A DNA stretch of 19,196 bases from a virus. Its lineage: Duplodnaviria > Heunggongvirae > Uroviricota > Caudoviricetes. Within the stretch, counting starts at the first letter, position 1, and each line of letters opens with the position of its first letter. Under the pieces are notes generated by a model. The model saw nothing but the letters and a program-made list of their open reading frames with translations. It was not told the origin of the DNA and made no database searches. Position numbers and translations under genes: made by a program. Below, one piece after another: positions 13,082-17,157 of the stretch. The stretch lies in IMG/VR virus record IMGVR_UViG_2534682325_000029. One strand, given 5' to 3'.

Positions 13082-13767
13082 ATAACCACTATTTACAGTT
13101 TGTGCGTGAGCTGCTCATTATCGCTACCGCCGATTTGAGTGGGGCAACAAAAGGTCAGCTTGAAGCCTGGCAGGAGAATGCCATGTTCGATACAGGGCGT
13201 TACAGGCGAAAAAAAATCCGGTACCGCGATGAAGTGACTGGAAAAATGATAACGCGGGATAATCCACCAATCCCGGGAAAGCAATCGCTGGCGAAGGTGA
13301 CGTCAATTCCTCTGGTCAGTCCGGTTGAGTTTTCGACATCATCGTGGCGGCGGGCTGTTCTGTCTCTTGAAGAACATCATAAAGCCTGGTTGTTGTGGTG
13401 TTACAGCGGGAGTATTTGTTGGGAATATCAGATCGCGATAACACAGTGGGCGTGGAATGAATTTAATACTCAATCCGGTACCAGAAAAATTGCAGGGAAA
13501 ACGCAGGAACGCCTGAAAAAATTAATCTGGCTGGCGGCGCAGGCAGTAAAAGCAGAACTTTTTGGTGGGGAAGGTTATGAATACAAGGAGCTGGCATTAC
13601 TGGTGGGAGTGACAACTAAAAACTGGTCCAAAACATTTACTCGTCACTGGGTTGCAATGAAACACATTTTTCACCGACTGGATAGTGAGGCTTTATTGTT
13701 TGTAATGAGAACGCGTTCAAAACAAAAGGCGGCATTTTCAAAGCAAAGTGTTGCAAAAGTAGATTGA
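13078..13767 (+). CDS. Late-gene antiterminator Q-like protein (229 aa)
   Basis: ATGA overlap with rusA. Sits immediately upstream of a promoter plus intrinsic terminator pair and the tRNA/late region, the canonical Q position. Family not confirmed by motif. Confidence 0.65.
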   Translation: MNNHYLQFVRELLIIATADLSGATKGQLEAWQENAMFDTGRYRRKKIRYRDEVTGKMITRDNPPIPGKQSLAKVTSIPLVSPVEFSTSSWRRAVLSLEEHHKAWLLWCYSGSICWEYQIAITQWAWNEFNTQSGTRKIAGKTQERLKKLIWLAAQAVKAELFGGEGYEYKELALLVGVTTKNWSKTFTRHWVAMKHIFHRLDSEALLFVMRTRSKQKAAFSKQSVAKVD

Positions 13768-13779
13768 AAGGCATATATT
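13751..13779 (+). promoter_or_regulatory. Putative late promoter PR' (-35 TTGCAA, 17 bp, -10 TATATT), overlapping the Q stop codon
   Basis: TTGCAA at 13751-13756, 17-nt spacer, TATATT at 13774-13779. A terminator follows about 55 nt downstream, the usual Q-modified PR'/tR' layout. Confidence 0.4.
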
Positions 13780-13831
13780 TCATGCAAATCTGATATTTTG
13801 CCGATTTTGTACGTGATGGCAAAAGCAAACA

Positions 13832-13858
13832 AAACCCGCCCACAAGCGGGTTTTTTTG
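13832..13858 (+). terminator. Rho-independent terminator (tR'-like)
   Basis: AACCCGCC-CACAA-GCGGGTT followed by TTTTTTT. Confidence 0.75.
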
Positions 13859-13939
13859 TGCCACTTATCTCGGATAGACATGGTGAATGCGCTGGTGGAG
13901 GAAGCAAGGGTAATTTTTAACCAGGTGATTCTTGAATGC

Positions 13940-13968
13940 TTGCAACATTGATTTCGTAACGTTATTAT
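13940..13968 (+). promoter_or_regulatory. Putative sigma-70 promoter for the tRNA cluster (-35 TTGCAA, 17 bp, -10 TATTAT, GC-rich discriminator)
   Basis: TTGCAA 13940-13945, 17-nt spacer, TATTAT 13963-13968, then CCTGCGCCC immediately before the first tRNA at 13978. Confidence 0.45.
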
Positions 13969-13977
13969 CCTGCGCCC

Positions 13978-14227: not shown

Positions 14228-14367
14228 CACTTATTTTCCCTCGCTCGCTTTTGCGGACCTTTTTTGTATCCGCACCACGCCCGGCGCATACCAACCACAG
14301 AGCCTTTCGGGGGGAGCTTATGGAGTGGTCAGTGTGACTTTCTCTGTGGGCAGATCGCTCCCGGGCG

Positions 14368-14829
14368 TTGGCTCACCCACCCAAAGGAACGTCACGATGT
14401 TTGGTATTTTTGGTAAAAAAAGCCCGCAGAGCGGCAACGGAAATTAAAAAGTTTGAAAAACGCGATCTGGCACAGGTGGTGATTAACGCCGCATACCTGG
14501 TGGCCTGTGCAGATGGTGAATGTGAGGCATCCGAGAAAGCGAAGATCGAACAGGTACTGCGTAATCAGCCTGCGCTGTACGCGTTTACGTCAGAAATTAA
14601 TGCGATTAGCGCAACCATTATCGGTCAGCTGGATACGAACTTTAAAACTGGTCGTCGTGCGGCGTTACGTGAGATCGAGGATGTGAAACACGATACGCGT
14701 GAAGCGGAAGATGTGCTGGATGTGGCGGTGGCCATTGCGGAGGCAGACGGCGAAATTGAGCCGGAAGAGCGCAAGGTGCTGGAAGAGATTGCCGGTGTTC
14801 TGGGTCTTCGTCTGGAGAATTACCTGTGA
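14368..14829 (+). CDS. TerB-like domain protein (two A-x-ADGE motifs); N-terminus ambiguous and possibly frameshifted
   Basis: Contains AAYLVACADGECEASEKAKIEQVL and VAVAIAEADGEIEPEERKVLEEIAGVLGL, the duplicated ADG-E signature of TerB-like domains. The track start is a TTG with no SD. A well-placed ATG (14397, SD AAAGGAA) is in another frame, separated by an A7 run at 14415-14421. Confidence 0.5.
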   Translation: MAHPPKGTSRCLVFLVKKARRAATEIKKFEKRDLAQVVINAAYLVACADGECEASEKAKIEQVLRNQPALYAFTSEINAISATIIGQLDTNFKTGRRAALREIEDVKHDTREAEDVLDVAVAIAEADGEIEPEERKVLEEIAGVLGLRLENYL

Positions 14830-14993
14830 CGGTAAAACTGCGCCTGACTGTGGCTGCACTCCTGCTGTTTCTGGTGGTGATGGTGGATTTCACCAGCAGA
14901 ATCATGTCGGTGCTGGCGGATGGGGTGCTGGTCTGCGGCATTATGGTATTGCTGTGGCCGGTGATAAAAAGAAACAGCCTGCATAATGCTTGA
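14826..14993 (+). CDS. Putative small membrane protein (55 aa), translationally coupled to the TerB-like gene
   Basis: Hand-translated ORF VTVKLRLTVAALLLFLVVMVDFTSRIMSVLADGVLVCGIMVLLWPVIKRNSLHNA. GTG start overlaps the TerB-like stop (GTGA) with SD GGAGAA 8 nt upstream. Two hydrophobic segments. Followed by a T-rich tract. Confidence 0.3.
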   Translation: MTVKLRLTVAALLLFLVVMVDFTSRIMSVLADGVLVCGIMVLLWPVIKRNSLHNA

Positions 14994-15194
14994 TTTTTTT
15001 GTTTGCTGTTTATTAAAAACACTTCTGCATGGTGAATCCCCCTGTGCGGTGGGGCAATCAGCAAGAAGGAATATGGGGTAATCGCGGATTCAGGTGCTGA
15101 TACTGAATTCACCGGGAGGCACCCGGCACCATGCTTTGCCACAAAAGTGTTATTTCTGTTTTTCTCAAACTATCATCGTTATCCCTTTATTTTC

Positions 15195-15220
15195 GGCTGC
15201 GCATGGCGCGGCCTTTTTTT
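15195..15220 (+). terminator. Rho-independent terminator upstream of the esterase gene
   Basis: GGCTGCGC-ATG-GCGCGGCC (8-bp stem with one G-U pair) followed by TTTTTTT. Confidence 0.6.
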
Positions 15221-15306
15221 ACGACCAGCCACTGGCAGATGGTCTTCCTGTGATTTGATTCCGCTTCCGGCTTTTTAACTCTGTTCCTCTACACGGGAGA
15301 AATTCG

Positions 15307-17157
15307 ATGTCGATTAAACATTATGATGTTGTCAGGGCGGCGTCGCCGTCAGACCTTGCGGAAAAGCTGACACACAAACTGAAAGAGGGCTGGCAGCCAT
15401 ACGGCGGACCGGTTGCCATTACGCCGTACACACTGATGCAGGCGGTGGCTATTGAAGGAGAGCCACAGGTCGGCCCTTCATCTGAGCCGGATTGGTACTA
15501 CGTCATCGTACTGGCCGGGCAGTCCAATGCCATGGCTTACGGTGAAGGGCTTCCGCTGCCGGATTCATACGATGCTCCGGATCCGCGCATTAAACAGCTG
15601 GCGCGCCGCAGTACAGTGACGCCGGGCGGGGCTGCCTGCAGATATAACGATATTATTCCGGCTGACCACTGTCTGCATGATGTGCAGGATATGAGTACGC
15701 TGAATCATCCGAGGGCTGACCTGAGCAAAGGGCAGTACGGCTGTGTCGGCCAGGGTTTACATATTGCCAAAAAACTGCTCCCGTATATCCCGAATAACGC
15801 GGGGATCCTGCTGGTACCATGCTGTCGTGGTGGTTCGGCATTTACCCAGGGCGCGGAGGGGACATTCAGCGAGTCCACGGGGGCCAGTCAGGATTCGGCA
15901 CGCTGGGGGGTGGGCAAGCCGTTATATCAGGATCTGATTTCCCGCACAAAAGCGGCATTGCAGAAAAATCCCAAAAACGTTCTGCTGGCCGTCTGCTGGA
16001 TGCAGGGTGAGTTTGACATGAGCGCCGCCACCCACGCACAGCAACCTGCGCTGTTTACAGCCATGCTGACACAGTTTCGTGCTGACCTCTCCGTGTTTAA
16101 CGCGCAGTGCCATGGTGGCAGTGCTGCAGATGTGCCGTGGATTTGTGGTGACACGACGTATTACTGGAAAAATACATACGCTACCCAGTACGACACCGTG
16201 TACGGCGGGTATAAAAACAGGGAGAGTGAGGGCGTTTATTTTGTGCCCTTCATGACAGACGGTAACGGCGTCAATACCGCCACTAACGCGCCGGCAGAAG
16301 ATCCGGATATTCCGGCATCAGGATATTACGGTGCGGCATCGAGAACGAATGGAAACCAGGTATCATCAAACCGCCCGACACATTTCAGTTCATGGGCGCG
16401 CAGGAGCATTATTCCGGATCGTCTGGCAACCGCTATTCTGAACGCAGCCGGGCGCACCTCAGCCTTCATCAGTGGTAAGGCACCGGAAATCAAACCCTCG
16501 CCCGGCGGCAACACGCCATCGGGTCCGTCTGCAGATACGTCCGTTCGCACAATCTCCCTGCTGCCGGCAGCCGGAGAGGCTGCTGCGCAGGGCTGGAGCA
16601 TTAAGGATGGCGGAATTCAGTTGTCAGATGGTGTATTTAAGATCACCAGGCAGAGCAATAAAACCTGGTCCCTGACGCATCCGGTGGATGACGCAATTAC
16701 CCTGCTGACACAGGGCGGCAGACTGACCTGTAAGTTCCGCCTGTCAGGCGCACTGACCAACAATCAGTTCGGGCTGGGGATTTATCTGTATACGGATGCT
16801 CCCGTTCCTGATGGTGTGGCGATGACGGGTACCGGTAATCCGTTCCTGATGTCGTACTTCACTCAGACCACTGACGGCAGGGTGAATCTGATGCATCACA
16901 GGAAAGCCGGAAACACGAAGCTGGGGGAGTTCGGCGATTACGGTAACGACTGGCAGACGCTGGAGCTGGTGTTCACCGCCGGCAGTGCCATGGTTACTCC
17001 GAAACTGAATGGAGTGGCTGGCCCGGCATTCCAGGTTATAAAAGACAGTCTGACACTGGGACTGAATGCGCTGACGCTGACGGATGTTACAAAAAATGCA
17101 GCGTATGGCGTTGAGATAGAAAGTCTGATGCTGGAGATAAATGCACCGGCAGCATAA
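15307..17157 (+). CDS. nanS-p: Prophage sialate O-acetylesterase, NanS-p type (616 aa): N-terminal DUF1737-like segment, SASA/SGNH esterase domain, C-terminal domain
   Basis: Esterase signature VIVLAGQSNAMAYGEG (GQSN motif) about 70 aa from the N-terminus. Size and position downstream of Q and the tRNAs match the esterase gene found after stxAB in Shiga-toxin phages. SD GGGAGA upstream. Confidence 0.8.
   Translation: MSIKHYDVVRAASPSDLAEKLTHKLKEGWQPYGGPVAITPYTLMQAVAIEGEPQVGPSSEPDWYYVIVLAGQSNAMAYGEGLPLPDSYDAPDPRIKQLARRSTVTPGGAACRYNDIIPADHCLHDVQDMSTLNHPRADLSKGQYGCVGQGLHIAKKLLPYIPNNAGILLVPCCRGGSAFTQGAEGTFSESTGASQDSARWGVGKPLYQDLISRTKAALQKNPKNVLLAVCWMQGEFDMSAATHAQQPALFTAMLTQFRADLSVFNAQCHGGSAADVPWICGDTTYYWKNTYATQYDTVYGGYKNRESEGVYFVPFMTDGNGVNTATNAPAEDPDIPASGYYGAASRTNGNQVSSNRPTHFSSWARRSIIPDRLATAILNAAGRTSAFISGKAPEIKPSPGGNTPSGPSADTSVRTISLLPAAGEAAAQGWSIKDGGIQLSDGVFKITRQSNKTWSLTHPVDDAITLLTQGGRLTCKFRLSGALTNNQFGLGIYLYTDAPVPDGVAMTGTGNPFLMSYFTQTTDGRVNLMHHRKAGNTKLGEFGDYGNDWQTLELVFTAGSAMVTPKLNGVAGPAFQVIKDSLTLGLNALTLTDVTKNAAYGVEIESLMLEINAPAA

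Follow-up and report, generated by a model that had tools for sequence, protein, structure and literature searches.

A 19,196-nucleotide (nt) stretch of Caudoviricetes DNA (IMG/VR record IMGVR_UViG_2534682325_000029; hereafter the window) carries a pair of overlapping genes at the position where Shiga toxin (Stx) phages hold stxAB. By homology the pair is tciA/tciB, named from phage P1, a common and catalogued moron that serves as an alternative cargo to stxAB. A structured leader RNA precedes it at 14263-14399, within a region covered by an earlier description made from the sequence by eye (the original prediction), where it had been overlooked. With moderate confidence, we favor the explanation that the locus is a mobile, late, Q-dependent moron cassette, an alternative to stxAB, in which the leader would gate translation of a membrane-tethered TerB-fold protein. 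Bases 1-18506 of the window are nearly identical (shown as 100.0%) to positions 2693614-2712119 of the Sakai chromosome, NC_002695.2, and match many further O157:H7 genomes as well. This match shows the window to be prophage Sp14 of E. coli O157:H7. The cassette consists of the following features.

14263-14399, + strand: structured leader RNA of tciAB, about 135 nt (covariance model R1, 137.9 bits, E = 2.5e-35)
14397-14829, + strand: tciA (ECs_2749), TerB family, counted from the ancestral ATG; the RefSeq coding sequence (CDS) runs 14401-14829 from a TTG (Pfam TerB, PHROG 632, PDB 2JXU)
14826-14993, + strand: tciB (ECs_2748), 55-amino-acid (aa) DUF3927 membrane peptide (Pfam PF13064, E = 1.7e-16; PHROG 1470)
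14998-15220, + strand: STnc100-family small RNA (sRNA) region with its terminator at 15195-15220 (Rfam RF02076; terminator scan)

The late region around the pair is ordered Q, a PR'-like promoter, the terminator tR', tRNA-Ile2/Arg/Arg, the TerB-family gene, the overlapping DUF3927 open reading frame (ORF) and a NanS-p-type esterase gene. The original prediction had read this as the late layout of Stx phages with other cargo in the stxAB slot, and all of the elements that it listed (Q, the PR'-like promoter, tR', the three tRNAs, the TerB-family ORF, the 55-aa ORF, the 15195-15220 terminator and the esterase) were confirmed. Comparison of the flanks with the Stx2a phage WGPS6 using blastn gives the slot borders at base level. 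Homology extends over 13905-14276 and begins again from 15009, and stx2AB of WGPS6 sits exactly between the points equivalent to 14276 and 15009. Relative to phage 75/02, the downstream homology border is at 15013. Judging from these alignments, the tciAB pair replaces stx2AB between flanks common with the Stx2a phage. Between 14228 and 15306 only tciA and tciB among the ORFs have family matches; stxA and stxB are absent. The stxAB moron of Stx-converting phages has the same insertion point (argO plus 49 bp to the STnc100-type region before nanS-p) and the same PR'/Q/tR' control region, but its cargo is unrelated to tciAB, which brings its own structured leader; the leader covariance model has no match in the two Stx phages searched. 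A T-run and the 5' strand of the leader's hairpin G are common with Stx2 phages (window 14258-14276; locus L097 5354-5372), thus placing the tciAB/stx junction inside the first hairpin of the leader. An order of 'moron CDS, then sRNAs, then conserved ORF' has been described downstream of PR' in the Sakai prophages (Tree et al. 2014; PMC4104026).

The TerB-like identity proposed for the first gene is well supported. TciA scores 45.4 bits against Pfam PF05099 (cut-off 24.4; E = 1.1e-11), a domain found in all of its homologues, and belongs to phrog_632 ('tellurite resistance', moron category; E = 2e-68). Residues 15-137 match the TerB structure PDB 2JXU (E = 4e-7), and an AlphaFold2 (AF2) model together with fold searches predicts a TerB-like all-helical fold. 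The protein of 143 aa has a basic hydrophobic N-terminal tail (MFGxFxKK...) and an acidic body, with a net charge of +4.5 over residues 1-25 and -12 over the remainder. It carries two ADGE-x5-E motifs, in which D38, G39 and E45 and again D116, G117 and E123 are invariant or at least 90% conserved (42-45 sequences). The paired acidic ADG-x-E motifs in TerB are presumably a metal site, as predicted for that protein. TerB of terZABCDE (PF05099; PDB 2JXU) has the all-helical fold and the paired acidic ADG motifs in common with TciA. TciA differs in being phage-borne and single, accompanied by a 55-aa membrane peptide and lacking TerC, TerD, TerE and TerZ partners. Tellurite or oxidative-stress resistance, the role suggested by the database name and by the Pfam and PHROG family, is very improbable for tciA. 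None of terZ, terA, terC, terD or terE was found among the ORFs or RefSeq features of the window, a late-lytic position is ill-suited to a resistance trait, and a lone phage terB has been judged unlikely to give resistance without other ter genes (PMC8421299).

The second gene encodes a small membrane peptide, as had been proposed. TciB belongs to phrog_1470 ('TciB-like', moron category; E = 1.8e-29) and has two hydrophobic segments, basic termini and a conserved DFTS-K...LADG...LWP motif. The tciA stop and tciB start overlap in the sequence GTGA. Across 15 diverse loci, the distance from the TerB stop to the start of a small hydrophobic ORF is -7 to +4 nt in 14, and a TerB gene followed by a DUF3927 gene is also present in P1, ChrisDB, Fostie and eight bacterial genera or metagenome-assembled genomes. 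Tight coupling of tciA and tciB is seen in lambdoid phages, in P1 and as far afield as the Erwinia jumbo phages.

The original prediction did not recognize the two genes as a known module. They are the tciA/tciB pair of P1 (PHROG 632/1470), annotated under these names in phage JLK-2012, where the pair occupies the same place behind a different Q and different tRNAs, and in Sakai, where ECs_2749 is a 'TciA/TerB-like protein'. It had been allowed that the pair might prove to be a common, already characterized component of stx-negative prophages. Common it is: of 5,426 complete E. coli genomes, 803 carry the tciAB coding region, at a median of 4 and a maximum of 8 copies each. The order leader-tciA-tciB-sRNA-nanS-p is nearly invariant in 80 IMG/VR loci, while the type of the upstream Q varies. 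A tblastn search matched TciA-like single-domain TerB proteins in 129 phage records; Erwinia jumbo phages are among these, as are virulent phages of Vibrio, Pseudomonas and Salmonella. Neither tRNAs nor an esterase gene accompany the pair in Pantoea, Pseudescherichia, Buttiauxella and phage Fostie, where it stands between Q and holin/lysozyme.

In P1 (locus L083) the genes form a tciA-tciB-tciC series in the C1-repressed ban operon. The same two families stand there in the same order with overlapping or abutting stop and start, and TciA is 40.6% identical to P1 TciA (tblastn). P1 differs in that transcription comes from the C1-controlled operon and not from a PR' slot, that the covariance model finds no structured leader in L083, and that tciC, encoding a 35-aa peptide with a single transmembrane segment, has no counterpart here, where the sRNA region stands downstream of tciB. 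The window copy is also frameshifted. Like those of lambdoid prophages, the tciA-tciB genes of P1 (L083 1616-3276) and Erwinia phage ChrisDB (L084 976-4010) lie among tRNA genes. A functional link between tciAB and tRNAs was considered and rejected. Seven of the nine loci from other species (L087-L095, found with strict search patterns) have no tRNA within 4 kb, and tRNA proximity is therefore taken as a shared moron hot-spot.

Over the 130-140 nt that lead up to the tciA start, conservation is as strong as in the protein. This leader is present in E. coli, Pantoea, Pseudescherichia, Franconibacter, Buttiauxella, Fostie and Erwinia jumbo phages, but not in P1. Its elements in the window, including the pairing of an anti-Shine-Dalgarno (anti-SD) strand with the Shine-Dalgarno (SD) sequence of tciA, are as follows.

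14272-14276 with 14283-14287, + strand: hairpin G
14278-14282 with 14363-14367, + strand: helix F, the G loop with a downstream strand (pseudoknot)
14295-14302 with 14342-14349, + strand: helix A
14303-14307, + strand: invariant anti-SD CCUUU, pairing with AAAGG of the SD at 14383-14389
14310-14317 with 14371-14378, + strand: helix B
14322-14330 with 14353-14361, + strand: helix E

Covariation was assessed in a MAFFT alignment of 23 distinct leaders, using as controls the same helices with pairing partners slid by 1-3 columns and 500 shuffles. In this set, 90.1% of cells are paired, compared with 36-52% in the slid controls. Both sides have changed in 18 of 40 pairs (5-10 when slid), and 57 cells have both-side changes (6-17 when slid); none of the 500 shuffles reached the observed values. 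The covariance model R1, built only from G, the anti-SD, B and E, scores 75-157 bits on all lambdoid and jumbo-phage tciA loci searched and no more than about 20 bits on the reverse strand. It has no match in P1, in a Vibrio phage or in the two Stx phages mentioned above. With 31 hits of every type aligned under guidance of the model, pairing reaches 93.6% of cells (32-56% when slid), and 17 of 23 pairs have both-side changes. Helix F, which is outside the model, is 92.4% paired in the same alignment, and 4 of its 5 pairs are compensatory. Compensatory double changes are seen in all six helices. For the Pantoea and type-2 versions of the leader, the structure of minimum energy is the nested anti-SD:SD, B and E fold, and forcing helix A in its place raises the energy by 8-15 kcal/mol. 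Helices A and F may either add tertiary pseudoknots to an SD-sequestering core or belong to an alternative fold.

Reading the leader as a known ribozyme or riboswitch found no match in Rfam. A search of 14240-14410 against Rfam 15 returned nothing at gathering thresholds and, at E <= 10, three meaningless hits of 3-14 bits. A literature search for a lambdoid RNA motif did not find a description of the leader either. It is unlikely that the 135 nt before tciA are conserved as DNA, as a recombination linker or protein-binding site, and not as a functional RNA. The location of the Stx-phage/tciAB junction inside hairpin G, at 14276, the truncated 5' leader halves that occur as scars elsewhere and the presence of the same leader before unrelated genes are all consistent with conservation of the DNA. 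The compensatory changes argue otherwise, as wholly different sequences still pair. Moreover, the sense strand has frequent G.U pairs, each of which the opposite strand would show as a C.A mismatch, the model separates the two strands by score, and the CCUUU and AAAGG pair across the SD is invariant.

Weaker copies of the leader occur away from tciA, downstream of the lysis cassette, right after an intrinsic terminator and ending at the ATG of another ORF. This variant pattern is present in at least 120 IMG/VR contigs. Among the matches listed, the ORFs behind it are J-fragment-like (phrog_13555/29765) in 87 of 112, with glycosyltransferases in 19 and HNH endonucleases in 3. Further variants, with every pairing kept, stand before HNH-like ORFs and before ORFs that from their sequence alone were judged KilA-N-like. 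The G-loop pairing CGCCC/GGGCG is replaced by TTCTCG/CGAGAA or TCTCAC/GTGAGA, helix B has ATATGAG/CTCATAT or AAACGA/TCGTTT in place of GGGTGAG/CTCACCC, and helix A appears as CCAAGAG/CTCTTGG or GCAGAG/CTCTGC. In Fostie, a variant leader heads a cargo cluster between Rz and terS.

With known SD-sequestering leaders (pseudoknotted translational riboswitches, RNA thermometers and the Mu com/mom type), the element has in common a covarying structure that ends at the start codon and an invariant anti-SD:SD pairing, and its pseudoknotted architecture is typical of aptamers. It differs from them in that it always follows a terminator in a phage late operon. As in riboswitches, a conserved covarying structure stands where it could control an expression platform. 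Unlike metabolite riboswitches, the leader has no Rfam match and its downstream genes (TerB, J-like fragments, glycosyltransferase, HNH and KilA-N-like) do not form a functionally coherent set. It is possible that the leader acts through a trigger reflecting phage or host state, as a thermometer, as the target of a protein or sRNA, or as an mRNA-stabilizing or processing element. More tentatively than for the cassette as a whole, we propose that it is the first of an undescribed family of pseudoknotted SD-sequestering leaders, a portable cargo-gene leader of lambdoid and even jumbo phages that would gate the following gene on a phage or host signal and double as a homology patch for cargo swaps.

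Some single contigs hold two or three leader copies, each before different cargo (HNH-like, J-fragment-like or TciA). Contig L240 has leaders at 9423-9541, 10612-10751 and 12959-13077, and L233, L208, L254 and L267 are also multi-copy. Truncated 5' leader halves (G, the 5' strand of A, the anti-SD and the 5' strand of B) are found fused to unrelated sequence in L197 (2240-2372), L232 (7990-8121), L200 (9191-9309), L240 (9423-9541) and L186 (6968-7086), and resemble scars of cargo-replacement recombination. Together with the Stx/tciAB junction in hairpin G, these halves suggest that the leader is also a recombination patch for cargo exchange. The commonest type-2 cargo consists of 210-330-aa proteins (phrog_13555/29765; for example, L188 1404-2210, L195 and L187) with variable N-termini, a segment like the central part of tail fibre J and a conserved C-terminus (...DAVRESDLF...PGGLLY). 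They may serve in receptor blocking or exclusion.

Returning to the favored explanation, the steps of a leader-gated, membrane-tethered cassette can be outlined. A consensus promoter scan detected no promoter-like site between argO and tciA, a by-eye TTGTAT-17-CATACC not being counted, which points to transcription from PR' with Q. The genes would then be transcribed only upon Q read-through of tR', late in lytic growth. In the transcript, the core hairpin of the leader would pair CCUUU with AAAGG of the ribosome-binding site, with two braces on this core, one between a hairpin loop and an internal strand and the other between an upstream strand and the terminal loop. Such a structure would hold the ribosome-binding site shut until some trigger opens it. 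TciA would be a cytosolic TerB-fold helical bundle and TciB a coupled, two-segment membrane hairpin that anchors or partners TciA at the inner membrane. The pair may alter the envelope of the infected cell, for instance guarding it against superinfecting phage, colicins or pore-forming abortive defences until lysis. Homologues in virulent and jumbo phages, the Q-to-lysis placement, the P1 ban operon and the missing promoter argue for a role in the lytic cycle, not in lysogenic conversion.

Several points weigh against this explanation. The late Q-dependent transcription is deduced from position, and the proposed membrane anchor from gene coupling and the charge pattern and nothing else. Vibrio phage TerB homologues occur without TciB. 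The TciA-TciB fusions P0011 (197 aa) and P0064 (170 aa) were not used as Rosetta-stone evidence, as their junctions look like small frameshifts or deletions. The leaders in the covariation tests are related and the structure was derived from the same sequences, while the helix sets {F, A} and {anti-SD, B, E} cross. Folded as a single sequence, the window leader is not more stable than shuffles (z = +0.75); the z-score of the sRNA region is non-significant as well, and single-sequence scores are therefore not used as evidence. The lack of relation among the downstream genes argues against a metabolite riboswitch. In P1, tciA/B/C were non-essential in a CRISPR interference (CRISPRi) screen and are dispensable for plaques (PMC10695390). 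Literature searches on tciA/tciB, DUF3927 and ECs2749/ECs2748 found no functional study, so the pair, common as it is, is not already characterized. In PADLOC-DB v2, the best match of TciA is PDC-S48 (E = 0.006, 13.7 bits) and TciB has none; membership of TciA in a known defence system is therefore not supported.

That last result bears on another reading, namely that tciAB is a lysogenic-conversion or defence module against phages or colicins, comparable to the ter Phi/PacB phenotypes or to Dionysus, Bunzi and Shango. TerB domains are found in validated defence systems with membrane or pore-forming partners, for which membrane surveillance has been proposed (bioRxiv 10.1101/2025.09.30.679545). 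In addition, the P1 name reflects homology to tellurite, colicin and phage-inhibition determinants, and the pair sits in a moron slot with several copies per enterohaemorrhagic E. coli (EHEC) genome. We nevertheless find this reading unlikely. The PADLOC match is only to a candidate system, no promoter-like site lies upstream, and the cassette is behind tR' and often behind another terminator too. Its homologues in strictly virulent and jumbo phages are in a setting where protection of a lysogen would be senseless. A less probable alternative still is phage counter-defence, with tciAB as a decoy or inhibitor of host TerB-based or membrane-acting abortive infection. This would agree with its presence in temperate, virulent and jumbo phages, with its placement in early or late lytic operons and with TciA being a minimal single-domain copy of a domain used by host defences. 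However, the idea is purely inferential, and the tight coupling to a membrane peptide is unexplained by simple mimicry. Defence, counter-defence and exclusion are all possible roles for TciAB.

The tciA allele in the window carries a frameshift. A start at TTG 14368 had been assigned in the original prediction and is without support; the family-wide start is the ATG at 14397, 7 nt past AAGGAA, which opens the N-terminus MFG(I/F/L/M)F.KK seen throughout the family. Here an extra A puts this ATG out of frame: the run at 14415-14421 is A7 in the window and A6 in JLK-2012 and most relatives. The +1 frameshift falls 8 codons past the ancestral ATG, and the ATG frame stops after 16 codons. The start in both RefSeq and Sakai is TTG 14401, giving MVFLVKK.... 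We considered the poly-A run as a phase-variable contingency tract by comparing 82 loci, 80 of them from IMG/VR. A7 is confined to a single haplotype that is also found with A6, which marks it as a single inherited mutation rather than a contingency tract. The other major tciA allele has an interrupted run, AAAAAGAAAA. The window leader departs from its relatives as well, with an A.C mismatch in G (GCACC) and a G.A mismatch in B (GGGGGGAGC versus GGGGGTGAGC in relatives), and scores 137.9 bits versus about 152 bits.

These changes raise the possibility, to us a doubtful one, that the window copy is a decaying pseudogene cassette without current function, with the tciA N-terminus lost, a collapse in translation of tciA and of tciB coupled to it, and a prophage that is itself defective. 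The A7 run and the early end of the ATG frame, the loss of a family-wide N-terminus and the leader mismatches with their lower score fit such decay, as do the insertion of IS629 after nanS-p, with the segment beyond it inverted, and the other tciAB copies in the same genomes (the median of 4 given above). However, 554 of 5,426 complete genomes contain the exact 81-nt stretch spanning the A7 run, and the ORF has not decayed further. The TTG 4 nt past the ATG restores a full-length product whose N-terminus is still hydrophobic and then basic, both PGAP and the Sakai re-annotation treat the gene as intact, and the existence of the same haplotype with A6 makes A7 recent. As for expression, the pair does sit in a PR'/Q-dependent moron slot, as the original prediction had it, but 'highly expressed' is doubtful for this copy because tciA is frameshifted, two substitutions break leader helices and IS629 disrupts the prophage. 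By the same signs, the cassette in this prophage is probably weakened. The widely annotated O157:H7 tciA allele is a frameshift variant, and experiments on Sp14 may therefore mislead.

Downstream of tciB, the terminator at 15195-15220 is present as predicted; it closes an STnc100-family sRNA region (14998-15220). RF02076 scores 100.8 bits at 14998-15170 against a gathering score of 47. The STnc100, PasD and EcOnc sRNAs have the same position, between a moron CDS and the esterase gene (Stx phages, PasD), and part of the STnc100 region is conserved downstream of stx/stxB in Stx phages; relative to the Rfam model, the 3' terminator in the window is displaced. An AsxR/AgvB-type anti-sRNA had no Rfam match in 14994-15306 at E <= 1. 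In the Hfq cross-linking and analysis of cDNA (CRAC) data for Sakai, the ECs2746...ECs2748 intergenic region (14994-15306) stands 8th of all intergenic regions by reads, with strand and paralogue multi-mapping unseparated, and the equivalent Stx2-phage region stands 10th (PMC4104026, Table S1B).

The remaining features of the late region are listed here.

13072-13767, + strand: Q, late antiterminator gene (ECs_2750, Sakai; Pfam PF06323 Phage_antiter_Q, E = 4e-91; RefSeq)
13751-13779, + strand: PR'-like sigma-70 promoter TTGCAA-17-TATATT (consensus scan, 9/12 positions)
13786-13866, + strand: short PR' leader RNA of 81 nt ending in the intrinsic terminator tR' (terminator scan)
13978-14227, + strand: tRNA cluster ileZ (CAT), argN (TCG) and argO (TCT) (ARAGORN, Rfam tRNA, RefSeq names)
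13978-14053, 14061-14137 and 14151-14227, + strand: the individual CAT, TCG and TCT tRNAs (ARAGORN)
15307-17157, + strand: NanS-p-type sialate O-acetylesterase gene (ECs_2746; Pfam DUF1737, SASA and DUF6645; RefSeq 'SASA family carbohydrate esterase')
17197-18506, - strand: insertion sequence IS629/IS1203, IS3 family (ORFs; RefSeq/Sakai annotation; ALIL pseudoknot RF01497 at 18055-18171)

The PR'-like site overlaps the 3' end of Q, as in lambdoid phages, and is a putative promoter. The 81-nt RNA that would start there folds with -24.3 kcal/mol (z = -3.2; 0 of 200 shuffles equally stable) and ends in the tR' hairpin, with a stem at 13831-13858 followed by U7. The segment 13784-13856 has weak, sub-threshold Rfam matches to Salmonella Gifsy isrK/isrJ (E = 0.03-0.08). 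This transcript is probably the counterpart of the lambda 6S and StxS-type PR' leader RNAs. The CAT tRNA is Met according to ARAGORN and Ile (ileZ) according to RefSeq, in agreement with the original prediction, and the tRNA block is about 92% identical to its Stx2-phage equivalent. A hok/sok type I toxin-antitoxin locus lies at 10888-11062, upstream of the nin region (sok RF01794, 114.9 bits; RefSeq hokD).

IS629 interrupts the late operon just after nanS-p, and its end, 18506, is also where identity to Sakai and most O157 genomes ends. Beyond it, at 18507-19196, the minus strand carries terS and a truncated terL. The IS/terL junction is also found inverted, about 4 kb downstream, in strains ECP19-598 and G5295, which implies that two IS629 copies in inverted orientation gave rise to an inversion in the source strain. 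Such an inversion would uncouple the lysis and packaging genes from PR', and the PR' transcript here would hold only the tRNAs, tciAB, the sRNA and nanS-p before IS629.

The gene pair itself is ordinary, being among the commonest occupants of the Shiga toxin position in EHEC phages. Nonetheless, a TerB and membrane-peptide pair is present, in several copies, in about 15% of complete E. coli genomes, and TerB domains are now emerging in anti-phage systems. Should the leader prove to be a translational switch, accessory genes in lambdoid late operons would have a general point of control in it, and it would offer a handle on when and why cargo at the Stx position is translated.

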